Positions 2,762 to 36,984 of a stretch of DNA of 64,000 nucleotides are shown one piece after another. Under the pieces are notes generated by a model. The model did no database searches. It saw nothing but the letters and a program-made list of their open reading frames with translations, and was not told the origin of the DNA. The position numbers and the translations under genes were made by a program. Every line of letters starts with the position of its first letter. The first letter of the stretch is position 1. Source of the stretch: a virus (Duplodnaviria > Caudoviricetes); IMG/VR virus record IMGVR_UViG_3300033072_001056, positions 3,710 to 67,709 of that record, one strand, 5' to 3'.

Positions 2762-3708
2762 TACTTTTGATTAAGAGTTTTCATTTTTTCATACACCTCA
2801 ATCTCTTTTTTGCAAAGGTAAATTCTACACATTAAAACACGTCTTTTGATATGCTCAATGTCTTCTTCTGTGACGGTTACTTCAAATTTTTTCAATCTGA
2901 AAATTGCCGGAACGTCAAAATCGAGTATTTCGTTTTCAAATTGGTAATACGGATAATCTCTTTTGAAAATGTCAATGTCAAAAATCATATTACGCTCAAT
3001 TTGTCTTTTAACTTCTTTCCACTTTTCGTCTTCGTCACTTGGATTTCCGTGAGCGTAAAATTGGCGAGTTATTTCGTTTTTAATATGATGTTCGGGGTTA
3101 TTAACCAATCCGTACATTAATTCTCCTTGAGGATAGTGGTCAAGATTAAAAACGTCTTTGGCAATGAAAGAATATCCTTTGATTTGATAAGAATACAAAG
3201 AAGTAAGCTCTGCTTCGTCATAAGTTTTCATATCATAGTTGGCCTTGGCGTCACGAATTTTACCTTGAAAATTATCCCATTCTCCTTGAAGATAATCGTT
3301 TTCGTATCTGCTACCATTTTTAATGTAGAATTCTCCGTCTAATTGACTTGCCAAATCTAATATATCCTGTTCAACGAGCAGACCCTTGTCGAGATACTTA
3401 TTTGCCAAGTGTCGTCGTCTTCTCCAAAAAACAGCCCGAAAAACATCTTCTAAGTGAGTGATAATTCCCGAAGACAATTCGTCTTCTCCCTTTTCTTTCC
3501 GCTGTAAAGATTTTACTCTCGCTGCTTTAGTATCAGTCCACTTTGTTTTTCTGCCGTTTTCGTTTACACCGGTGTTACATTCTTGAAGCAAATTTGCCAA
3601 TTCAACTTTTTCTTCTTCGCTAATTGGAACTGGCAAATTAGTCATAATATTACCCAAACTAGAGCAACGAGGCTTCCAATTCTTAAATATCAAATTTGAA
3701 TCACTCAT
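2761..3708 (-). CDS. PD-(D/E)XK exonuclease (YqaJ/lambda-Exo-like), partner of RecT
   Basis: RCSSLGNIMT, G...E, GEWD...IRDAK, YQIKGY motifs; adjacent to recT. Confidence 0.7.
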   Translation of the reverse strand: MSDSNLIFKNWKPRCSSLGNIMTNLPVPISEEEKVELANLLQECNTGVNENGRKTKWTDTKAARVKSLQRKEKGEDELSSGIITHLEDVFRAVFWRRRRHLANKYLDKGLLVEQDILDLASQLDGEFYIKNGSRYENDYLQGEWDNFQGKIRDAKANYDMKTYDEAELTSLYSYQIKGYSFIAKDVFNLDHYPQGELMYGLVNNPEHHIKNEITRQFYAHGNPSDEDEKWKEVKRQIERNMIFDIDIFKRDYPYYQFENEILDFDVPAIFRLKKFEVTVTEEDIEHIKRRVLMCRIYLCKKEIEVYEKMKTLNQK

Positions 3709-4693: not shown

Positions 4694-4909
4694 CTAAAAT
4701 TTTAATTGGTTACTATTAATTTTTACTTTTCCGTTTTGGTCTTTTTTAGCGGTTATTTTGCCTTTTTCGATGTGAGAGTACACGGTGTTTCTTGACATCT
4801 TGTTTAACTTGGCAAATTCGCTAATTGTGAGCCATTCTTTCACGGCATCATCTGATTGTATGACAACCGTTTCGCCGGGTTTAATTTTGATTATTCTTTC
4901 GTTGCTCAT
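4694..4909 (-). CDS. Excisionase-like winged HTH DNA-binding protein
   Basis: WLTISEFAKLNKMSRNTVYSHIEKGKI pattern. Confidence 0.75.
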   Translation of the reverse strand: MSNERIIKIKPGETVVIQSDDAVKEWLTISEFAKLNKMSRNTVYSHIEKGKITAKKDQNGKVKINSNQLKF

Positions 4910-5084
4910 TTTCGTTTATTTTTTCGATTATACTTCTTTCGGCATTAGCAATAGCAAGAACTAATATTGCCATTATACAAAAATTATCGGGTTGTTCTTT
5001 GAAGAAAATGTATTTTGCCGAAACAATAAGTAACATAATAACAAAAAGGCAAAGTTCTAATATTGCATAAATTGATTTTTTCAT
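4881..5084 (-). CDS. Small two-TM membrane protein
   Basis: Two hydrophobic segments. Confidence 0.5.
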   Translation of the reverse strand: MKKSIYAILELCLFVIMLLIVSAKYIFFKEQPDNFCIMAILVLAIANAERSIIEKINENEQRKNNQN

Positions 5085-5088
5085 ATCC

Positions 5089-6351
5089 TTAAATTTTACG
5101 GGTTGGGCAATTGTAATTTTCTTTTAAAAAATCTAAAAAAACATTTACCTCGGCAGTTTCATTAATCGGAAATGGCTCTTTAAAAAAAGAATAAAATATA
5201 TCGTCCCAAGTCAATTCTTTTTCCGGCATTGGAGTATTTGCTTTTAGTCTTGTTGAAAGACCTTTAGGGTCAACGTCTGCTTCGTGGTAAATTTCAACTT
5301 CAACACCTGTAAGGTCAAAAACATTTTCATTGGCGGATTCATCGGATTCCGTTTCTTCGAATTCAACTTCTTGAGTTACCATCTCGGGTTCTTTTGCTTT
5401 TAAAACAGAATTTTTGAATTCTTCAAAAGATTGGTCGGTGTGATTGAGCAATTTTACTTTTGCGGTGCTTTCAGAATTGTTACACTCAGCCGTTAGATAA
5501 ATTCTCCAATAATCAACGTCAACTAAAAATTTCTTTCTCTCTTGAAACTTAGCTTCTGCTTGTTTTTCTTCGAACTCTCTTTTTTCTTTTTCAAACGCTT
5601 CCTTGGCAAGTCGGATTTTTTCTTCCTCGGCTTTTTGCTTTGCCTCGATAGCCTCACGTTCTTTTCTTTGTTCCTCGGCAATTCTATCGGCTTCGATACG
5701 TTGTTTTTCGCGTTCTTCGGCAAGTCTTATTTGTTCTAAGCGAATTTCTTCTTGCTCGGTAAGGGTTTTGATTCTTGCTTCAAGTAAATTTTGAAGATAA
5801 GAAGCACTGTCATCAAAAAGCACTTCAAACTCTTGATAAATACTTCTGTTGTGCTGATTCAAAACGGCTTTGAAATTTGTTTTTAAACTTTCAATGGTTT
5901 CAAAAGTAAGCATTGAAAACTTATCTTCCCAATATTGACGAAATTCGCCAATTTTCTTTTTGATATTGTCAACTCTCTCTTGCTCCAAGCGTAGCTTTTC
6001 CAATCGCTCGTTTTCTTTGATTTGCTCGTAGCGTTCTACTTCTTCTTGCTGGGTTTTTTCGTATGGTTCCGTAATTGCAATTAGCGAAGCACTCACTTCT
6101 CCAACTCTATTTTTAAAGTTGTTCAGTTTTGACTTAATCGCCTTGTCCGACTTCTCAACATCAGTCCTAAAAGTACGCAAGGCCGTTCTGTTCTTTTTTG
6201 CTAATTCATAAGAAGAATTGTCTTTGATTTCAACAAAAGAACACTCTTTTACAAGTTTCTCGCCTCTTTCTTTGAAATTCGCCAATTCAGGCAATTTGTT
6301 CACGTCGATTTTATCTAAATCGATTACTGCTAATTCTGATTTTTTTGTCAT
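5089..6351 (-). CDS. Long coiled-coil protein heading the recombination operon (DUF1351/Gam-like position)
   Basis: E/K/R-rich heptads; first gene after the leftward promoter. Confidence 0.55.
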   Translation of the reverse strand: MTKKSELAVIDLDKIDVNKLPELANFKERGEKLVKECSFVEIKDNSSYELAKKNRTALRTFRTDVEKSDKAIKSKLNNFKNRVGEVSASLIAITEPYEKTQQEEVERYEQIKENERLEKLRLEQERVDNIKKKIGEFRQYWEDKFSMLTFETIESLKTNFKAVLNQHNRSIYQEFEVLFDDSASYLQNLLEARIKTLTEQEEIRLEQIRLAEEREKQRIEADRIAEEQRKEREAIEAKQKAEEEKIRLAKEAFEKEKREFEEKQAEAKFQERKKFLVDVDYWRIYLTAECNNSESTAKVKLLNHTDQSFEEFKNSVLKAKEPEMVTQEVEFEETESDESANENVFDLTGVEVEIYHEADVDPKGLSTRLKANTPMPEKELTWDDIFYSFFKEPFPINETAEVNVFLDFLKENYNCPTRKI

Positions 6352-29290: not shown

Positions 29291-31951
29291 ATGAAAAATT
29301 TATCAGCAGATATTGAGATTGCTATTAAAGACGCAATTTCCGGAATGAATTTAGACATTAACATCTTAGATGTTGATGATGACAAATTAGCTACATTGAT
29401 GTCTTCTCGATTAGAATCATTTTCAGCCACAAAGGAAATGATAAAGCTTTGGCAAGAATCACCTAACGCGCCAAGCCAAGCAAAACTTAGAAAAAACGCA
29501 GAGGAACTTATAAAATCGGGAGAAAATTCGATAGAAGTACTTCGTCAAGCGCTTAGAAAAAAAATAGCCTTTAGCGAATTAGACACAGAGAAGTACGGAA
29601 AGGCTATTAAGTCCAAGCCCGTAATTTTTAAGGCAATTAACGAGATTAATGCCGGAGTACTATCTTTGAAACTTCAGTTAGACGCAGACCAATTAGACTT
29701 CAAAGAACGCGAATTTCGACGTGGATTTCCCGAGAAATTTGCTTCGCAAGAATTTTTTCCCGCAAAAGATTATCACAAGGAATGGTATGACAAAGAAACC
29801 GATTCGGTAATGATTTGTCCGCTTGGCACAAAAGGGAAAGTGATTACTCTTGACGGATTAAACATTATGCTTCCGGCGCCACCAAAATCAAAAAAGAAAA
29901 TACTTTTCAGTAATTTACCAAAAGAAGAACAGTATTGGCGAAGAATCGAACCTCCTCAAGGGCTTACTCCGGAAAACGAAGATGTGTACTACGATTTTAT
30001 TATCGAGGAATTCCGTAAGCGTAGGGAGGGAGTTTGGTTTATGAATAACGGTGAACCGGTATATCTTACCCCGGCGCATTATATGGCGTTACAATGGGTG
30101 AAAATGTTAGATACCGGCTCGTTTATGGATTTCAGATATGCGCAAGCAGAAATGTTTTACTTCACGCGCGCGTGTGTTTTAGATCCGCGATGTTTAGGAG
30201 AGCTGTTTGTAAAGTCACGTCGTACCGGTTTTACCTATCAGATTATTTGCGAAATGATAAATGACGGAACCGGAACATCAAATGCCAAACTTGGTATGAT
30301 TTCAAAAACCGGTGATGATGCCCAAGAAGCATTTTTAAAAATGACTTATGGTATTCAAAACTTACCATTCTTTTTTATACCGGTAGTCAAAGGCAAAATT
30401 GACAGTAAAACAGAAGTTGAATTTGCCAAGCCTTCAGATTCTAGTAAGGTTGCCAAAAAGAAAAAAGACAATAGTACCGATGATTACTTGAATACTTTGA
30501 TGAATTGGAAAACGACTACTGAATCTGCTTATGACGGACAAAGAATGTATCGTTTGTTAATTGACGAGGCGTCAAAACCACTACCCCCATTTAATCTTGA
30601 AACTTATTGGGGACGTGTATCTCCAACCATTAATAACGGTGGTAGGATTGTAGGTAAAATATACGTTGGTTCAACGGTAAACCCTATGAAACTTGGTGGG
30701 GACAAATTCTTGAGAATGTACAAAGGCGCTATGGTTTCAAAAAGAGACAAGGACACTCAAAGAACACCAAACGGTCTGTACGCCTACTTCTTGCCAGCTC
30801 ATAAAAACATGGAATTATTTACCGATAAATACGGAGTTTGTCATACTGTTGTACAGCCGGGCGAATCGTTTACCAATGTTTACGGAACTGAAATATTTGA
30901 AGGGTCAATTCAATATTTGGAAAATATCCGTCGCCAAAAAAGAAAGCAATCGGACATTTTGTACAATGAGGAATTGCGCGCTAATCCAATGACTGTTGAA
31001 GAAGCATTTAGAGATGAAGCTAAGGCAAGTATGTTTAATCTCGAGAAGATAAATGACCAAATTGCTTATAATGATTCTCAAGATATTGAGCAAAAACAAC
31101 TTGTTCGCGGTAATTTCCAATGGAAAGACGGGCAAAAAGATTCTGTCGTAGAGTGGCATCCAAATCCAAGAGGTAGATTTTTACTAAGTTGGATTCCACC
31201 TAAAGAATTACAGAATAAATGGGAGATGAAAGTCAATATGTTTGGTGGAAGAAGCAAGCATCCGTCTAATGAAGATTTAGGATGTCTTGGTATTGACTCT
31301 TATGATATTAATTCGACAGTTGATTCTAAATTAGAAAACACAGAGAACGGAAGCGAATGGTCGGGAGGTTCTAAAGGAGCAATATCCGGAGTTACTTCTA
31401 AATTCACATTGAAAGATGCCCCGAGCAACTCTTTCTTTTTAGAGTATATTGCCCGACCGGAAACAGCCGAGATGTTTTTTGAAGATTGTTTAATGGCTTG
31501 TGTGTTTTATGGTATGCCGGCGCTTGTCGAAAATAACAAAGCACGATTGCTTTATCACTTTAAAAACAGAGGTTACCGAGGGTTTTGTCTTAGCCGATTT
31601 GACAAGCCTTCTAACAGATTAAGTCCTACCGAAAAAGAAATTGGCGGAATTCCTTCAAACTCCGCGGACGTTATTCAAATGCACTATACTGCAATTGAGG
31701 CTTATGTAGAAAAATACGTTGGGTATTATACTCAAGGAGATGATTTAGCTCCGGTAAGAGAAGAAAATGAAATTGGTTCAATGCCGTTTAACAGAACATT
31801 GCGCGATTGGGCAAGTTTTAATATTTCAGACAGAACAAAATCGGATATTTCAATTGCCTCGGGTTATGCCTTAATGGGTGTAAACAGACATAGTTACAAG
31901 TTTCAAAACGAAGCACCGGCGCCAATTGCTTTTAAAATTCGTTATAATTAG
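29291..31951 (+). CDS. terL: Terminase large subunit with an ~150 aa N-terminal extension
   Basis: Walker A KSRRTGFT, Walker B LLIDEASK, nuclease GIDSYD, C-terminal D..IASGYALM. Confidence 0.9.
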   Translation: MKNLSADIEIAIKDAISGMNLDINILDVDDDKLATLMSSRLESFSATKEMIKLWQESPNAPSQAKLRKNAEELIKSGENSIEVLRQALRKKIAFSELDTEKYGKAIKSKPVIFKAINEINAGVLSLKLQLDADQLDFKEREFRRGFPEKFASQEFFPAKDYHKEWYDKETDSVMICPLGTKGKVITLDGLNIMLPAPPKSKKKILFSNLPKEEQYWRRIEPPQGLTPENEDVYYDFIIEEFRKRREGVWFMNNGEPVYLTPAHYMALQWVKMLDTGSFMDFRYAQAEMFYFTRACVLDPRCLGELFVKSRRTGFTYQIICEMINDGTGTSNAKLGMISKTGDDAQEAFLKMTYGIQNLPFFFIPVVKGKIDSKTEVEFAKPSDSSKVAKKKKDNSTDDYLNTLMNWKTTTESAYDGQRMYRLLIDEASKPLPPFNLETYWGRVSPTINNGGRIVGKIYVGSTVNPMKLGGDKFLRMYKGAMVSKRDKDTQRTPNGLYAYFLPAHKNMELFTDKYGVCHTVVQPGESFTNVYGTEIFEGSIQYLENIRRQKRKQSDILYNEELRANPMTVEEAFRDEAKASMFNLEKINDQIAYNDSQDIEQKQLVRGNFQWKDGQKDSVVEWHPNPRGRFLLSWIPPKELQNKWEMKVNMFGGRSKHPSNEDLGCLGIDSYDINSTVDSKLENTENGSEWSGGSKGAISGVTSKFTLKDAPSNSFFLEYIARPETAEMFFEDCLMACVFYGMPALVENNKARLLYHFKNRGYRGFCLSRFDKPSNRLSPTEKEIGGIPSNSADVIQMHYTAIEAYVEKYVGYYTQGDDLAPVREENEIGSMPFNRTLRDWASFNISDRTKSDISIASGYALMGVNRHSYKFQNEAPAPIAFKIRYN

Positions 31952-31952
31952 T

Positions 31953-31983
31953 TTTGGTAGATTAAAAAATATTACTATATTTG
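31953..31983 (+). promoter_or_regulatory. Promoter of tRNA array 1
   Basis: TTTG-N19-TATATTTG. Confidence 0.85.
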
Positions 31984-32000
31984 CCTCAAATAAAGAAGAA

Positions 32001-32075
32001 ATGAAAAAAATGATTACCATAAAAACGATTGCAAGAGTTGGGGATAATTTTCCAAGCAAGGGGACTATGGTGTAA
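32001..32075 (+). CDS. Leader peptide 1 (MKKMITIKTIARVGDNFPSKGTMV)
   Basis: Short ORF between promoter and terminator; codons 2-16 match the array-1 tRNAs. Confidence 0.8.
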   Translation: MKKMITIKTIARVGDNFPSKGTMV

Positions 32076-32099
32076 ATTTTGTTTAGTTTTAACACATAA

Positions 32100-32137
32100 A
32101 AAATCCCCTAATAACATTAGGGGATTTTTATTTTTTT
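32100..32137 (+). terminator. Attenuator terminator 1
   Basis: ATCCCCTAAT-AAC-ATTAGGGGAT plus T-tract; left arm also pairs with leader AGGGGA (32059-64). Confidence 0.85.
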
Positions 32138-32211
32138 GGGGGCGTATGTTTCAAGGCTGACGACTTTGATTTGCAATCAGAGTGAGGTGATTTCGATTAT
32201 CACCGTCTCCA
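32138..32211 (+). tRNA. tRNA-Ala(UGC)
   Basis: Cloverleaf, loop TT-TGC-AA, G3:U70. Confidence 0.85.
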
Positions 32212-32226
32212 CAACAATAAGACAAT

Positions 32227-32256
32227 ATGAAAACAAGTAAAAAGTTTAAGAAGTAA
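32227..32256 (+). promoter_or_regulatory. Lys-rich minigene MKTSKKFKK upstream of tRNA-Lys
   Basis: 5 of 9 codons are Lys; followed by mutually exclusive hairpins at 32257-32292. Confidence 0.65.
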
Positions 32257-32288
32257 TCTGCTCTCAATGATTGGGAGTAGAAATCTAT

Positions 32289-32361
32289 TCCCTCTAAACA
32301 TTATTGGTGGATGTACCAAACTTTTAATTTGGGAAGCCGTGTTCGAATCACGGAGGGGGAA
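32289..32361 (+). tRNA. tRNA-Lys(UUU)
   Basis: Cloverleaf, loop CT-TTT-AA. Confidence 0.9.
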
Positions 32362-32366
32362 CGAAA

Positions 32367-32439
32367 CGGAATATAGCTCAATTGGTGGAGCAATCGCCTG
32401 ATACGCGAGAGGTTATAGGTTCAAGTCCTTTTATTCCGA
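32367..32439 (+). tRNA. tRNA-Ile(GAU)
   Basis: Cloverleaf, loop CT-GAT-AC. Confidence 0.92.
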
Positions 32440-32445
32440 CAAAAC

Positions 32446-32518
32446 GCGAGTATGGTGTCAATGGTTAACATTAGAGACTTCCAATCTCAAGATGTCAGTT
32501 CGATTCTGACTACTCGCT
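32446..32518 (+). tRNA. tRNA-Gly(UCC)
   Basis: Cloverleaf, loop CT-TCC-AA, U73. Confidence 0.92.
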
Positions 32519-32523
32519 CAAAA

Positions 32524-32596
32524 GGTCTATAGGTCAAATGGGTAAGATGTCCGGCTGTCGCCCGGTACGGAGAGGGTTCGAATCCCTCATAGACCG
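32524..32596 (+). tRNA. tRNA-Asp(GUC)
   Basis: Cloverleaf, loop CT-GTC-GC, G73. Confidence 0.9.
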
Positions 32597-32602
32597 CTAA
32601 AT

Positions 32603-32675
32603 GCTTCTGTAATTCAATTGGTAGAAACCCGCATTTGTAACGCGGAAGTTGCAGGTTCGACTCCTGTCAGAAGCT
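32603..32675 (+). tRNA. tRNA-Thr(UGU)
   Basis: Cloverleaf, loop TT-TGT-AA; A31-C39 mismatch. Confidence 0.88.
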
Positions 32676-32680
32676 CAATT

Positions 32681-32751
32681 GCCCAATTTGCATAACGGAA
32701 GTGCCGTTGTTTTACACGCAACAGCAGGGTGTTCGATTCACTCATTGGGTA
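32681..32751 (+). tRNA. tRNA-Val(UAC)
   Basis: Cloverleaf, loop TT-TAC-AC. Confidence 0.88.
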
Positions 32752-32756
32752 CAAAT

Positions 32757-32827
32757 GTCGGTATAGTTCAACGGAAGAATAAGACCCTTCTAAGGTTTTG
32801 ATGAGAGTTCGAGTCTCTCTACCGATT
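32757..32827 (+). tRNA. tRNA-Arg(UCU)
   Basis: Cloverleaf, loop CT-TCT-AA. Confidence 0.9.
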
Positions 32828-32832
32828 CAATA

Positions 32833-32909
32833 GGGCTTGTATCGCCTCTGACTCATAATCAGTAGAAAGCGTAATCGGTCACACGGCGGTTCAATTCCGT
32901 CCAAGCCCA
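32833..32909 (+). tRNA. Atypical CAU tRNA (Ile2-like) with the D-arm-like hairpin 3' of the anticodon arm
   Basis: Perfect acceptor and T arms; anticodon arm CTGA-CTCATAA-TCAG starts 9 nt after the acceptor strand. Confidence 0.7.
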
Positions 32910-32913
32910 CAAA

Positions 32914-32985
32914 GGAAGTATGGTGAAATGGTATCACGACAGACTGTTAATCTGTTAGTTTCAAGTTCGAGTCTTGATATTTCCG
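32914..32985 (+). tRNA. tRNA-Asn(GUU)
   Basis: Cloverleaf, loop CT-GTT-AA, G73. Confidence 0.92.
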
Positions 32986-32992
32986 CTAAAAA

Positions 32993-33023
32993 TTTGATAA
33001 TTTGAATTTTATTTTTACATTTG
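32993..33023 (+). promoter_or_regulatory. Promoter of tRNA-Met and array 2
   Basis: TTTG-N19-TACATTTG. Confidence 0.85.
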
Positions 33024-33026
33024 CAG

Positions 33027-33098
33027 GGCGTGAAGGTGTAATCGGTTGCATTGGAGTCTCATAAACTCTACGGGGTGGTTCGAATCCACGACACGCTA
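33027..33098 (+). tRNA. tRNA-Met(CAU), elongator type (Ile2 not excluded)
   Basis: Loop CT-CAT-AA, G2:C71 and C3:G70; lacks the initiator GGG/CCC stem. Confidence 0.75.
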
Positions 33099-33112
33099 CA
33101 AAGACATATATT

Positions 33113-33184
33113 ATGAGAAATTTAAGTTTATGTTCGTTTTATTGGTTGTCGTTTAAAAACGACACGGGATATAGCGCGCATTAA
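33113..33184 (+). CDS. Leader peptide 2 (MRNLSLCSFYWLSFKNDTGYSAH)
   Basis: Codons 4-14 match the array-2 tRNAs. Confidence 0.8.
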   Translation: MRNLSLCSFYWLSFKNDTGYSAH

Positions 33185-33210
33185 ATTTACCTTGTAATTA
33201 TTTAAAAGCT

Positions 33211-33239
33211 AATCCCGTTCGAAAGTTCGGGATTTTTTT
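33211..33239 (+). terminator. Attenuator terminator 2
   Basis: AATCCCG...CGGGATT plus T5; left arm pairs alternatively with leader CGGGATATAGC (33165-75). Confidence 0.85.
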
Positions 33240-33242
33240 ATT

Positions 33243-33326
33243 GGGAGTAACGCTCGAATTGGTTAGGCGCTTGACTGTAAATCAGGTAATCTGCATAGAT
33301 AGGTGGTTCGAATCCATCTGCTCCCA
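33243..33326 (+). tRNA. tRNA-Tyr(GUA)
   Basis: Loop CT-GTA-AA, long variable arm. Confidence 0.9.
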
Positions 33327-33332
33327 CAAAAT

Positions 33333-33406
33333 AGCTGTATGGCGGAACGGTAGACGCATCAGACTTAAAATCTGTACAACTGTGGGTTCGACTCCCACTA
33401 CAGCCA
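33333..33406 (+). tRNA. tRNA-Leu(UAA) lacking the long variable arm
   Basis: Loop CT-TAA-AA; 6-nt variable region; A1-C72 mismatch. Confidence 0.85.
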
Positions 33407-33414
33407 CAAAAAAA

Positions 33415-33501
33415 GGAGGTATAACCCAAGTTGGTCTAAGGGGCGCTGTCTTGAAAACAGTTGGTCGTAATGGCGTGTAAGTTCGAGTCTTACTGCCTCC
33501 G
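33415..33501 (+). tRNA. tRNA-Ser(UGA)
   Basis: Loop CT-TGA-AA, long variable arm, G73. Confidence 0.92.
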
Positions 33502-33507
33502 CAAAAT

Positions 33508-33591
33508 GGAGAGTAAACTAATCAGGTGGTTAGACTTGTTTGCTAAACAATGGGTGGGTAAAACCTTGGGAATCGTGTTCTCTGCTCTCCG
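33508..33591 (+). tRNA. tRNA-Ser(GCU)
   Basis: Loop TT-GCT-AA, long variable arm, non-canonical T-loop ATCGTGT. Confidence 0.85.
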
Positions 33592-33600
33592 CTATAAATT

Positions 33601-33671
33601 GCTTCTCAGCGTAGGTTGTGCCAATCGGTCTCCAAAACCGTATTGTAAAGGTTCGAATCCTTTGAGTCGCG
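33601..33671 (+). tRNA. tRNA-Trp(CCA), degenerate acceptor and short D arm
   Basis: Loop CT-CCA-AA, canonical T arm, two acceptor mismatches. Confidence 0.72.
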
Positions 33672-33676
33672 CAAAA

Positions 33677-33749
33677 GGAAATTTGGCAGATAAGGTTATT
33701 GCGCTCGACTGAAAATCGAGAGGGCTCGGATCGTTACCGAGAATTTCCA
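33677..33749 (+). tRNA. tRNA-Phe(GAA)
   Basis: Loop CT-GAA-AA; T-loop ATCGTTA. Confidence 0.88.
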
Positions 33750-33754
33750 CAAAC

Positions 33755-33825
33755 GACAAGAAGCCTGACGGAGAAGGGTGCGGTCTGCAAAACCAAACAT
33801 CGCGGTTCGATTCCGCGTCTTGTCT
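33755..33825 (+). tRNA. tRNA-Cys(GCA)
   Basis: Loop CT-GCA-AA, U73. Confidence 0.88.
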
Positions 33826-33833
33826 CAAATTAG

Positions 33834-33905
33834 AACGCAATGCAAGATTCGAACTTGCGTCTTTTGGTTCGTAGCCAAAGATTTTTCCAATTAAACTAAT
33901 CGCGC
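33834..33905 (-). tRNA. tRNA-Arg(ACG)
   Basis: Loop CT-ACG-AA on the minus strand. Confidence 0.9.
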
Positions 33906-33910
33906 ATTTG

Positions 33911-33991
33911 TACGGACGAGAGGACTTGAACCTCCAAAGCTAACGGGTCTAAACCGCCAAGATGTGCCATTCTCAATAAAGCCACGTCCGC
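33911..33991 (-). tRNA. Atypical tRNA-Leu(UAG): enlarged D region, no long variable arm
   Basis: Acceptor and T arms intact; loop TT-TAG-AC; ~26-nt D region. Confidence 0.72.
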
Positions 33992-33996
33992 AATTG

Positions 33997-34068
33997 GGTG
34001 TTTTCGGGTCTCGAACCCTGTTCTCCGGATTCACAGTCCGGCACTTTACCTGTTAAGCTAAAAACACC
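33997..34068 (-). tRNA. tRNA-His(GUG)
   Basis: Loop CT-GTG-AA; encoded G-1:C73. Confidence 0.88.
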
Positions 34069-34074
34069 ATATAG

Positions 34075-34147
34075 TTTCTTTGTCAAGACTCGAACTTGAA
34101 CAACGAGAGTCAAAGTCTCGTATGCTAACCAATTACATCACAAAGAA
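34075..34147 (-). tRNA. tRNA-Gln(UUG)
   Basis: Loop CT-TTG-AC; U1:A72. Confidence 0.9.
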
Positions 34148-34153
34148 TTTTAG

Positions 34154-34225
34154 TAACGCATACGGGATTCGAACCCGTGATTAGAAATAGAAAGTTTCTT
34201 GTGCTGACCACTACACTAATGCGTC
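34154..34225 (-). tRNA. tRNA-Glu(UUC)
   Basis: Loop CT-TTC-TA (U at position 37). Confidence 0.88.
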
Positions 34226-34230
34226 TTTTG

Positions 34231-34307
34231 TCTAGTTGGCAGGAATCGAACCTGCGTAACTCCCGCTTCCAAGGCGGGCGAGTATATCCATCTGCTCCGA
34301 CAACTAG
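34231..34307 (-). tRNA. tRNA-Pro(UGG)
   Basis: Loop CT-TGG-AA; C1:G72, A73. Confidence 0.9.
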
Positions 34308-34311
34308 AAAT

Positions 34312-34340
34312 AAAAAAAGCCTCCCAATTACGGAAGGCTT
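34312..34340 (-). terminator. Attenuator terminator 3
   Basis: AAGCCTTCCG-TAAT-TGGGAGGCTT plus T-tract; left arm pairs alternatively with leader CGGGAGG (34379-85). Confidence 0.85.
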
Positions 34341-34365
34341 TAGCTAATATATTTTATTTACATAT

Positions 34366-34440
34366 TTACACGCTTGTTCCTCCCGATAAAATATCCGGCT
34401 CTTGAAGACGTTGTTCAGTATGTAATTTTAATCTTTTCAT
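34366..34440 (-). CDS. Leader peptide 3 (MKRLKLHTEQRLQEPDILSGGTSV)
   Basis: Codons 7-15 match the array-3 tRNAs; near-leaderless ATG. Confidence 0.8.
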   Translation of the reverse strand: MKRLKLHTEQRLQEPDILSGGTSV

Positions 34441-34444
34441 ATTG

Positions 34445-34474
34445 CAAATATATGAATACTTTTTAAGTCTGCAA
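34445..34474 (-). promoter_or_regulatory. Promoter of tRNA array 3
   Basis: TTG-N19-TATATTTG on the minus strand. Confidence 0.85.
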
Positions 34475-34484
34475 GTATTTATAG

Positions 34485-34531
34485 AAAAATAATATGAATT
34501 CTACAACTTATATAAAGTTTTTCTATCTTTG
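34485..34531 (+). promoter_or_regulatory. Late-class promoter (portal)
   Basis: AAAAATAATAT box starting 39 nt before TATCTTTG. Confidence 0.65.
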
Positions 34532-34554
34532 TTGTGTAAATATTTATCAGACAA

Positions 34555-36984
34555 ATGGATAATAGTAAGAACGGCAATTTCAATATAAGCCCAATGGTTA
34601 GTTTTCCAAGTCAATTGGAGCCATTCGAAGTAAAAAAAACTAAAGAGTGGGGGCTAAGATTGGCTCAGTCAATACAAAGCGATTGGTTTTACGGGATGAA
34701 TACCGGAAACTTTTTGTCTTCTCAATTCAATTTGCAAAGACGTGATTTTTTACAAAGACGTTTATACGCAAAAGGATTGCAGTCAATGGACAAATACATA
34801 GAGCAATTCAAATCAGACGGAGACAAGTCGTTCTTAAACCTTCCAACTAAACCGATTAGTATTATCCCTAAATTAGTTGATGTGGTTGTTAATGGGATGG
34901 CCGACAGAGGTTATTCTATTCGTGCTACTTCAATTGACCCGATTGGTCACAAAGAAAGAGTAGCTTACAGAGAGCAGATTGAAACCGACGTTCTTTCAAA
35001 AGACATAATTGTTCAAGCAAAAGAAAAATTAGGCGTAGATGTGGCTAGTATGCCACTAGAACAACTTCCGGAGACCGACGAAGAATTGAACTTGCACATG
35101 GAACTTGAGTACAAGCAATCTATCGAGCTTTCTCAAGAATTGGCAATTGAGCAAGTAATGAATGACAACCGGTACAACGACAAAATAGACAGAATGGTTA
35201 AAAAAGACCTAACTATTTTGGGAGTTTCTTGGGTTAAACATCGTTTTGTTCCGGACAAAGGAATTGTAATCGAGTATGTAAATCCGGAAAACAAAGTGCA
35301 ATCATATACCGACGACCCTTATTTTGAAGATTGCTATTACCACGGAGAATTTAAGACGGTTCCGCTAACTCAAATTTATACGGATTACCAATGGCTTAAT
35401 CTTCCGGAAAACGCAGATATAAAAGCGCAAGTTGAATATTCAGCAAACGGATGGTGGGAATACAATTTGATTGCAAGCAACGACAGAATTAAAGGAGTTG
35501 CCAATTTGCTTTATTTTACATACAAAACCACAAGACCAAAGCAAAGAAAGATAAAACTCAAAGCCACCGGTGAGAAAAGAATTATCCCAATGGAATACAA
35601 AGGGAATCCGGACAAAAACCCAAACATTAAAATAACAACCGTAGAGGAAGAAGTTTTAATGGAAGGAGTTTATGTTTTAGGAACAGACATAATGCTTAAA
35701 TGGGAAGTTGCCGAATCTATGGTTAGACCAAAGTCTAACAGACAAAAGGTAATTGACCAATACATAGGTGTTGCTCCTAATATGGAAAGAGGTTATATTG
35801 ATTCGCCGGTTGCTAGAATGATACCTGTAGAAGACCAATTAAACATACTCGAATTAAAAGGCGCTCAAATCATTCAGAAAATACAACCTGACGGGTTTAT
35901 GATTGATGTGGATGCAATTGCCGAGTTAGATTTAGGAAACGGCTCCAAATTAACCGTTCAAAATGTTGTAGATATGTTTTGGCAAACCGGTAGTATTTTC
36001 ACTAGAAGTTTCGGAGCAAGTGGCGACCCAATGTATTCTAAGCCTATTACTGAATTAAGAACCGGAGACTCTATAACTAAACTACAAGCACTTACCGCTC
36101 AAAAAGCGCAGTATATGGATCAGATGCGTGACGTTATCGGATTAAACAAAGTTTCCGATGCTTCAACACCTGATAAAGATTCTTTAGTAGGAGTTCAAAA
36201 GCTTGCTTCTTTAAATTCAAATATTGCGACTCGTCATATTTTAGATGGGGCTTCTGACATAACAAAAAGAATTGCATTAGCTATTACATATCGAATTCAC
36301 GACTTATTAAAGTTCACCGAATTAAAAGAAGATTTTTCAAGAAAAATAGGTTCGACATCGGTTAAGACGTTAGAGTCTGTAAAAGATTTGCATTTGCACG
36401 ATTTCGCAATTTACTTAGATTTACATTTAGACGATGAGGAACGCGCGAAATTAGAACAAGATATGTCATTGGCAATTGACAAAGGGATGATGAGCATTCA
36501 AGATAAATACAAGGTTTTGAATATTAAAAACTTCAAACTTGCGTTGTCTTATATGACAATTTTGGTCAATAAATATCAGAAAAAACAACAAGAGCAAAAA
36601 GCCCAAGAGTACAAGATACAAGCCGATGAGAACATACGTGCTGCACAAAGCGCAGAGCAAGCTCGTCAGCAAACGGCTCAAATGATTAGTCAATTTGATA
36701 TGGCCAAGCAACAATTGGTTAATGACGGATTGATACAAAAAGAGCAAGTCAAAGGACAGGAAGACCGTTCTACATTGGAAATTAAAATCGAAGGAGATTT
36801 GATGGTTGCCCAAGCACAATCAGGTGTTAAAATGCAGATTCAAGAAGAAATGGAAAACCGTAAGGATGAAAGAGAGAATCTTAGATACACCAATCAAAGC
36901 AAGGAAAACTACAAAAAAGAAACCGGCGGTGCGCCAATTGACTTCACTCAAAACGATGAAATAAACGAAGTGTTTAAAATGTAA
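34555..36984 (+). CDS. Portal protein (crAss/phi14:2-like)
   Basis: Size and position after terL; FPSQ...K...EWG, RRLYAKG.Q, PISIIPK.VDVVVNGM motifs. Confidence 0.85.
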   Translation: MDNSKNGNFNISPMVSFPSQLEPFEVKKTKEWGLRLAQSIQSDWFYGMNTGNFLSSQFNLQRRDFLQRRLYAKGLQSMDKYIEQFKSDGDKSFLNLPTKPISIIPKLVDVVVNGMADRGYSIRATSIDPIGHKERVAYREQIETDVLSKDIIVQAKEKLGVDVASMPLEQLPETDEELNLHMELEYKQSIELSQELAIEQVMNDNRYNDKIDRMVKKDLTILGVSWVKHRFVPDKGIVIEYVNPENKVQSYTDDPYFEDCYYHGEFKTVPLTQIYTDYQWLNLPENADIKAQVEYSANGWWEYNLIASNDRIKGVANLLYFTYKTTRPKQRKIKLKATGEKRIIPMEYKGNPDKNPNIKITTVEEEVLMEGVYVLGTDIMLKWEVAESMVRPKSNRQKVIDQYIGVAPNMERGYIDSPVARMIPVEDQLNILELKGAQIIQKIQPDGFMIDVDAIAELDLGNGSKLTVQNVVDMFWQTGSIFTRSFGASGDPMYSKPITELRTGDSITKLQALTAQKAQYMDQMRDVIGLNKVSDASTPDKDSLVGVQKLASLNSNIATRHILDGASDITKRIALAITYRIHDLLKFTELKEDFSRKIGSTSVKTLESVKDLHLHDFAIYLDLHLDDEERAKLEQDMSLAIDKGMMSIQDKYKVLNIKNFKLALSYMTILVNKYQKKQQEQKAQEYKIQADENIRAAQSAEQARQQTAQMISQFDMAKQQLVNDGLIQKEQVKGQEDRSTLEIKIEGDLMVAQAQSGVKMQIQEEMENRKDERENLRYTNQSKENYKKETGGAPIDFTQNDEINEVFKM

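Follow-up and report, generated by a model that had tools for sequence, protein, structure and literature searches.

A putative leader-peptide attenuator whose codons match the tRNA genes that follow it in an accessory phage tRNA cassette

The window analyzed here, that is, the whole 64-kb stretch of DNA that forms the bulk of a 67.7-kb phage record, carries all tRNA genes of the record between the large terminase and portal genes, both of which were assigned by PHROGs matches. The tRNAs number 24, one per codon box, cover 20/20 amino acids and lie in three blocks (arrays 1 to 3), and the leader studied here (leader 3) fills the interval from the right edge of the tRNA cassette up to the first tRNA of array 3. 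The main features of the locus are as follows:

29291-31951, plus strand: large terminase gene.
31951-34478 (2,528 bp): whole tRNA cassette with three leaders and 24 tRNAs, an accessory insertion in the interval between large terminase and portal.
34307-33833, minus strand: tRNA array 3 (Pro-UGG, Glu-UUC, Gln-UUG, His-GUG, Leu-UAG and Arg-ACG), the genes proposed to be regulated.
34555-36984, plus strand: portal gene.

Relatives found through the portal gene (L001-L005) contained neither tRNAs nor a homologous leader and served to place the cassette boundaries only. One of them (L003) has 16 bp in place of window positions 31951-34478, with flanks that are 96.5-97.4% identical, and another (L001) carries a different gene, on the minus strand, at the same site; thus, the tRNA block is an accessory cassette that behaves as a discrete indel. 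The site itself looks like a hot spot for accessory modules. Pfam searches with the proteins neighbouring the cassette returned no match.

The Leu-UAG gene of array 3 was missed or mis-called by ARAGORN; its 7-nt anticodon loop, U-U-UAG-A-C, was read from folding and from alignment with the Leu-TAG genes that ARAGORN called in relatives. The 24 tRNAs at 32138-34307 constitute a complete, non-redundant decoding set, with U34 in the four-codon boxes, ACG for Arg-CGN and two CAU tRNAs. At 32833-32909 lies a tRNA-like gene with a CAU anticodon (Rfam, 33.7 bits) that ARAGORN did not call even at relaxed settings and in which the D-arm region is seemingly truncated and a long insert stands ahead of the T arm; because an ATA codon is present in leader 1, this gene may be an ATA-reading Ile tRNA.

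Within leader 3 we read the following elements in the direction of transcription:

34472-34475, minus strand: -33-like element CTTG, read from the sequence, 19 nt upstream of the -7 box.
34452-34445, minus strand: -7 box TATATTTG, followed by CAAT and then by the ATG (34440-34438).
34440-34366, minus strand: leader ORF of 24 codons plus stop codon (34368-34366).
34422-34396, minus strand: putative regulatory codon run, codons 7-15.
34398-34382, minus strand: small hairpin (-4.9 kcal/mol, with a G/G mismatch) that reaches into the 5' part of the antiterminator; candidate 1:2 or pause element.
34389-34379, minus strand: antiterminator segment at codons 19-21, with the core CGGGAGG (34385-34379).
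34341-34308, minus strand: intrinsic terminator (-15.2 kcal/mol, 11 pairs) with its hairpin at 34341-34316, left arm at 34339-34331, right arm at 34325-34319 and U-tract at 34318-34308.

Bacteroidota promoters follow the consensus TTTG-N19-21-TAnnTTTG, and the spacing between CTTG and the -7 box fits such a promoter, with CTTG as its plausible -33 element. The homologous leaders in L020 and L133, two IMG/VR contigs of uncultured phages, have a perfect TTTG at 20 nt. A preliminary description of the locus, made from the sequence alone, had placed the ATG 4 nt from the -7 box, and this holds, as CAAT is what separates TATATTTG from the ATG. The same 4-nt distance recurs in five leaders, including leaders B and C of the cultured Cellulophaga phage phi38:1 and those of L020 and L133, which suggests that the mRNA is leaderless or near-leaderless.

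Codons 7-15 read CAT ACT GAA CAA CGT CTT CAA GAG CCG, exactly as had been described, and specify His, Thr, Glu, Gln, Arg-CGU, Leu-CUU, Gln, Glu and Pro. Comparison with the gene list of array 3 bore out the further claims that 8/9 of these codons are cognate and that all six array tRNAs are represented, the sole non-cognate codon being ACT (Thr). Each array 3 tRNA receives one or two codons in the leader, so that sensitivity to any single species is perhaps modest. A codon-by-codon reading also agreed with the described change of codon boxes at the borders of the run: AGA (codon 3) and TTA (codons 4, 6 and 18) are used outside it, whereas CGT and CTT are used inside. Across the long ORFs of the phage, Arg is encoded by CGN in only 37% of cases and Leu by CTN in only 33%; the choice of CGT and CTT inside the run therefore opposes the phage's own preference.

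Chance occurrence was assessed for a 9-codon window holding at least 8 cognate codons and 6/6 tRNAs. Such a run was found in 17 of 2,000,000 random 23-codon ORFs drawn with phage codon usage (~8.5e-6) and at 3 of the 127,948 six-frame positions of the 64-kb window, leader 3 being one of the three. When the 1,180 small ORFs of the window were ranked by best-segment score against array 3, the leader 3 ORF came 4th, its score being equalled or exceeded by three others. Taken alone, the codon match is no more than suggestive. Chance is nevertheless unlikely given that the run is placed in a slot of ~130 nt between promoter and terminator, and its position and the comparative data set out below together make the match, on our reading of the sequences, compelling.

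The U-tract of the terminator consists of 7 U followed by AUUU and ends at the first base of tRNA-Pro. The region and the portal gene diverge, so that no upstream gene on the same strand calls for a terminator here. Of all segments of the leader, CGGGAGG was the best complement to the terminator left arm (CCTTCCG), with a duplex energy of -11.2 kcal/mol (z -2.46, shuffle p 0.027), and the antiterminator structure in context reached -14.3 kcal/mol; the pairing of these two segments, which the preliminary description had proposed, is thus confirmed as a predicted structure. Its companion proposal, that a hairpin CCGGATA-TTT-TATCGG sequesters the antiterminator, stood in part: the hairpin exists at 34398-34382, but at -4.9 kcal/mol it is weak, and the antiterminator is favoured over it when no ribosome is present. 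The small hairpin forms the apex of a larger structure in which codons 6-12 are paired with the stop-codon region, and this larger 1:2 structure was estimated at ~-14 kcal/mol versus -16.0 kcal/mol for the ribosome-free antiterminator state. With the hairpin weak and the ribosome-free antiterminator slightly favoured, the classical three-state logic is not established. Moreover, as the antiterminator wins in ribosome-free equilibrium snapshots, the untranslated default of leader 3 may be read-through rather than termination.

The effect of ribosome position was modelled with snapshot folds, for which the transcript was cut before the terminator right arm and only RNA 3' of the modelled ribosome was folded. 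When the A site was placed at any of codons 2-16 of leader 3, the antiterminator formed (-14.3 kcal/mol); when it was placed at codons 17-25, stop codon included, the antiterminator was absent. The codon run at 7-15 falls within the zone that permits the antiterminator. The same two-state pattern was obtained by snapshot folding in 14/14 leaders, in most of which the cognate run ends ~1-4 codons from the boundary between the two states. Two other folding schemes were discarded. Equilibrium folds of the full leader returned the terminator always, under any ribosome mask, and were uninformative on a kinetic switch; snapshots that permitted pairing across the ribosome gave late "antiterminators" that were spurious, and the 3'-only snapshots were used instead.

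The 14 leaders analyzed comprised three from the window, three from phi38:1, one each from the phages phi19:1 and phi10:1, two each from L020 and L133, and one each from L123 and L053, the last four being IMG/VR contigs of uncultured phages. The other two leaders of the window are:

Start at 32001: leader 1, with a terminator at 32099-32129 and then tRNA-Ala; 15 consecutive cognate codons, 11/11 array 1 classes.
Start at 33113: leader 2, with 11 consecutive cognate codons and 7/7 array 2 tRNAs, including Trp and Cys.

Scoring the three leaders against the three arrays of the window produced a cleanly diagonal matrix. In the window interval 33013-33112, a promoter-like box, TACATTTG, stands 6 nt before tRNA-Met (33027-33099), and the leader 2 ATG follows only 13 nt after that tRNA; in view of this box and this short gap, leader 2 may be transcribed as a 3' extension of the tRNA-Met precursor.

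The layout of leader 3 was found in cultured Cellulophaga phages of two families, namely phi38:1 (three leaders), phi19:1 (one) and phi10:1 (one), and is shared by the metagenome contigs L150 and L173, the L173 leader being the closest to leader 3. A degenerate search of IMG/VR for the exact codon run of leader 3 gave no match. An intrinsic terminator lies 47-85 nt past the stop codon in 14/14 leaders; 12/14 have the best complement to its left arm within the 3' third of the ORF, 11/14 have a shuffle p <=0.04, and a clear antiterminator complement was looked for in the L123 leader and not found. Compensatory pairs of antiterminator and terminator arm were observed, GAAGGCTGC/GCAGCCTTC in L020 corresponding to GAAGGGT/ACCCTTC in L133, and a second co-variation of antiterminator and terminator left arm set GGCTCCGGG/CCCGGAGCC against GGCTCTGG/CCAGAGCC. 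This recurrence bears on an alternative in which the small ORF is there by accident and the terminator ahead of the tRNAs serves as a constitutive insulator or as a leaky stop that sets dosage. Such an account could draw on the high frequency of intrinsic terminators in the AT-rich intergenic DNA of phages, and on the three other small ORFs of the window that score as high as or higher than leader 3 against array 3. It conflicts, however, with the divergent arrangement noted above, which leaves no upstream gene on the same strand in need of a terminator, and with the recurrence of ORF, codon run and antiterminator, with co-variation, at the 14 arrays examined, and we regard it as very improbable.

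To what extent leader content follows array content was determined for 12 leader/array pairs, with array lists taken from ARAGORN and Rfam calls and a few anticodons read by eye. With the leader core defined as the first 17 codons, a definition chosen after the data had been seen, own-array tRNA classes were present in the leader in 96/96 cases versus 45/180 for non-array classes (Fisher 1.5e-39). Cognate codons amounted to 174/233, compared with a mean of 81.9 (sd 14.9, maximum 158) for permuted pairings. Where a tRNA sits in a different array, the matching codon is found in the leader of that array: in phi38:1, Leu-UAA belongs to array C (the Pro/Glu/Gln/His array) and TTA occurs three times in the run of that leader, while in the window Leu-UAA belongs to array 2 and TTA/TTG occur in the run of leader 2; likewise, Asn in phi38:1 is part of array B (the Tyr/Ser/Trp/Phe/Cys array), and Asn codons are part of the leader B run. 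The leader of phi19:1, which is without a Glu tRNA, is without a Glu codon in its run. The L020 and L133 arrays hold Pro, Thr, Cys, Phe, Trp, Gln, His and Arg-ACG, and the leader runs spell exactly these, and the 47-codon leader of L123 specifies 19 amino acids but no Leu, its array of 23 tRNAs lacking Leu only. Inside the runs of the leaders read, the Arg codons follow the isoacceptor of the array, CGN going with Arg-ACG and AGA with Arg-UCU. Codons without an array tRNA were also seen (Tyr in L150, Asn in phi38:1 leader A and Ser-AGY in phi10:1).

The peptide sequences themselves differ between homologous leaders, and what stays conserved is composition relative to the array. Between the runs of L020 and L133 there are five synonymous third-position changes, an insertion of one whole codon in frame and one exchange of a cognate Gln codon for a cognate His codon, a pattern that argues for constraint at the level of codons and reading frame. 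These comparisons also weigh on the possibility that the switch is real but codon-unspecific, a gauge of translation capacity or of transcription-translation coupling that would allow read-through whenever a ribosome is slow or absent and would leave the codon run as a by-product. Ribosome-free folds predict the antiterminator and there are only 1-2 codons per tRNA, both of which would suit a general gauge; yet leader content follows the array (96/96 classes), the choice of isoacceptor box is opposite to phage codon preference, and three differently composed leaders serve three arrays within one cassette, so that we judge a general gauge unlikely.

The preliminary description had read leader 3 as a codon run matched to array 3 and coupled to an antiterminator/terminator switch, and the analysis supports this: all parts of a leader-peptide attenuator are present in the correct order, and the backing comes chiefly from other loci. 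On the strength of the sequence comparisons and modelled folds, we consider it likely that leader 3 acts as a ribosome-mediated (leader-peptide) transcription attenuator responsive to how well array 3's own tRNAs are supplied, and it probably lets the phage make these tRNAs only during slow decoding of the corresponding codons. Translation of the leader ORF, control of read-through in vivo and the nature of the physiological trigger are inferred. In the proposed sequence of events, the Bacteroidota-type promoter would start transcription of an mRNA that begins at or beside the AUG, and a ribosome would load on this leaderless mRNA once its 5' end emerges and would then trail RNA polymerase along the 24-codon ORF. 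If codons 7-15 are decoded without delay, the ribosome would move on into the final third of the ORF and up to its stop codon and would cover the G-rich antiterminator at codons 19-21; the terminator hairpin could then form, and the transcript would end in the U-tract before tRNA-Pro. Scarcity of any of the Pro, Glu, Gln, His, Leu-UAG or Arg-ACG tRNAs, or of same-box host equivalents, would instead stall the ribosome in the run, in which case the antiterminator would pair with the terminator left arm and polymerase would enter array 3. The fresh phage tRNAs would in turn relieve the stall, giving negative feedback. Candidate triggers are tRNA-targeting host defences, a poorly matched host tRNA pool and phage tRNA homeostasis.

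RNA-library contigs from phi38:1 infection, available from two studies, cover leaders B and C with their arrays, and one of them spans leader B, its terminator and array B; contigs of this kind carry neither transcript ends nor transcript levels. Breaks between the phi38:1 contigs coincide with repeated promoter sequence. One contig skips 34 nt at the leader C terminator (L017, 5657-5692), amounting to most of the hairpin, which may mean that reverse transcriptase jumped a stable stem or that the contig was misassembled there.

Leader-peptide attenuators govern the trp, his, phe and leu operons, and multivalent leaders such as those of thr and ilvGMEDA mix codons for several amino acids. Leader 3 as modelled would share with the amino-acid operon attenuators a short leader ORF with regulatory codons, a mutually exclusive antiterminator and terminator, and a decision made by ribosome position. 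It differs from them in preceding tRNA genes rather than biosynthetic enzymes, in listing every array isoacceptor once or twice with no repeated single codon, and in having a leaderless or near-leaderless mRNA, in a phage with Bacteroidota-type promoters, and a weak anti-antiterminator. When the Rfam leader families were run on leader 3, the sole hit was Phe_leader (RF01859) at 27.8 bits, below the threshold of 55 and confined to the terminator part. In E. coli the pheM leader controls the pheST (Phe-tRNA synthetase) operon through the decoding speed of its own codons, and it resembles leader 3 as modelled in being an attenuator for a component of the decoding machinery; unlike leader 3, it is chromosomal, serves a synthetase for one amino acid and has no tRNA genes.

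T-box leaders likewise sense tRNA status through a terminator/antiterminator switch ahead of translation-related genes, but they bind uncharged tRNA directly, using a specifier codon together with the T-box motif, and need no translation. A translation-free mechanism could be envisaged for leader 3 as well, in which the triplets of the run bind tRNA anticodons in a T-box-like manner, or else the micropeptide could itself be the functional product. The run does offer one triplet per tRNA, as direct binding would use. The T-box covariance model, however, gave no match at E up to 1 in 31000-36000, and no other riboswitch family matched; furthermore, the ATG, the frame and the stop codon are conserved, with homologues differing by third-position changes and whole-codon indels. 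A functional peptide is made less likely by the fact that composition relative to the array is conserved and peptide sequence is not. Taken as one class, direct binding and a functional micropeptide appear extremely improbable.

Among published systems in which an accessory tRNA array is expressed conditionally, the trn operon of Anabaena sp. PCC 7120 comes nearest; it is a long tRNA array that is induced under translational stress (PMC8421152) and controlled by the repressor TrcR acting at direct repeats in the promoter (PMC10272220). Like array 3 it is an accessory tRNA array, and it stays silent until translation is impaired; it differs from array 3 as modelled in being governed by a protein repressor and in residing on a bacterial megaplasmid, not in a phage. 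The main texts of PMC8421152 and PMC10272220 contain none of the terms "leader peptide", "attenuat..." and "terminator", and in the full-text literature searched we found no account of leader-peptide (trp-operon-style) control of tRNA genes.

If the attenuator reading of leader 3 is extended to the other leaders, each may act as a "barcode" of the isoacceptors in its array, so that the cassette would be a portable, self-regulating counter-measure to host tRNA loss or to a poorly matched new host, each array being switched on only when one of its own tRNA species is missing and each leader evolving with its array during tRNA shuffling. We put this forward tentatively, as a reading that may well hold but that we would stop short of calling probable. 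The causes of such tRNA loss could include anticodon nucleases, PARIS, and Schlafen-type or CRISPR-linked tRNases. Why phages carry tRNAs is a matter of long-standing debate, with codon compensation and evasion of defences that target tRNAs as the leading proposals (PMC10264068, PMC11464382). Should the attenuator be real, these phages would gauge how specific codons are being decoded and answer with tRNAs; since both phi38:1 and its host, Cellulophaga baltica, are cultured, the debate would be directly testable. It would also extend leader-peptide attenuation from amino-acid metabolism to tRNA genes, with a multi-isoacceptor design of one codon each, and would provide a sequence-only rule by which leader content predicts array content. 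Such a rule could be of use in annotating arrays, in finding tRNA genes missed by standard tools and in building synthetic sensors of tRNA availability.

Several further observations were made in the course of reading these arrays. In several GenBank records, the first tRNA of such arrays is unannotated or lies under a spurious CDS. Unannotated tRNA genes were located in phi38:1 (L015; 1907-1985, 3408-3598, 3775-3850, 4005-4078, 4628-4783 and 5030-5110), in phi19:1 (L006; 3218-3291) and in phi10:1 (L016; 2528-2600 and 2682-2842). The phi38:1 CDS gp071 overlaps tRNA-Pro and tRNA-Glu and is probably spurious, and the small annotated CDS gp066 of the same phage overlaps leader A.

The IMG/VR contigs contain additional elements within or beside the arrays. 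In L123 a GOLLD RNA (4799-5223, minus strand; Rfam, 271.9 bits) lies between the Leu and Met tRNAs, directly upstream of the 47-codon leader and the 23-tRNA array. L020 has ORFs resembling HNH-type homing endonucleases, recognized by eye, inside its tRNA arrays at ~2190-1780 and ~700-390 (minus strand), each with its own promoter box and one of them following an apparent 5' half of tRNA-Arg(ACG). A tiny ORF with a run of Gly and Cys codons (~3428-3368, minus strand, in L020; ~6770-6815 in L133) closely precedes, in both contigs, the promoter that serves the Pro/Thr/Cys/Phe/Trp/Gln/His leader. Finally, L020 carries at 2994-3078 (minus strand), directly after a normal Pro-UGG gene, an 85-nt class-II-like tRNA with a long variable arm, which ARAGORN also called as Pro-UGG.
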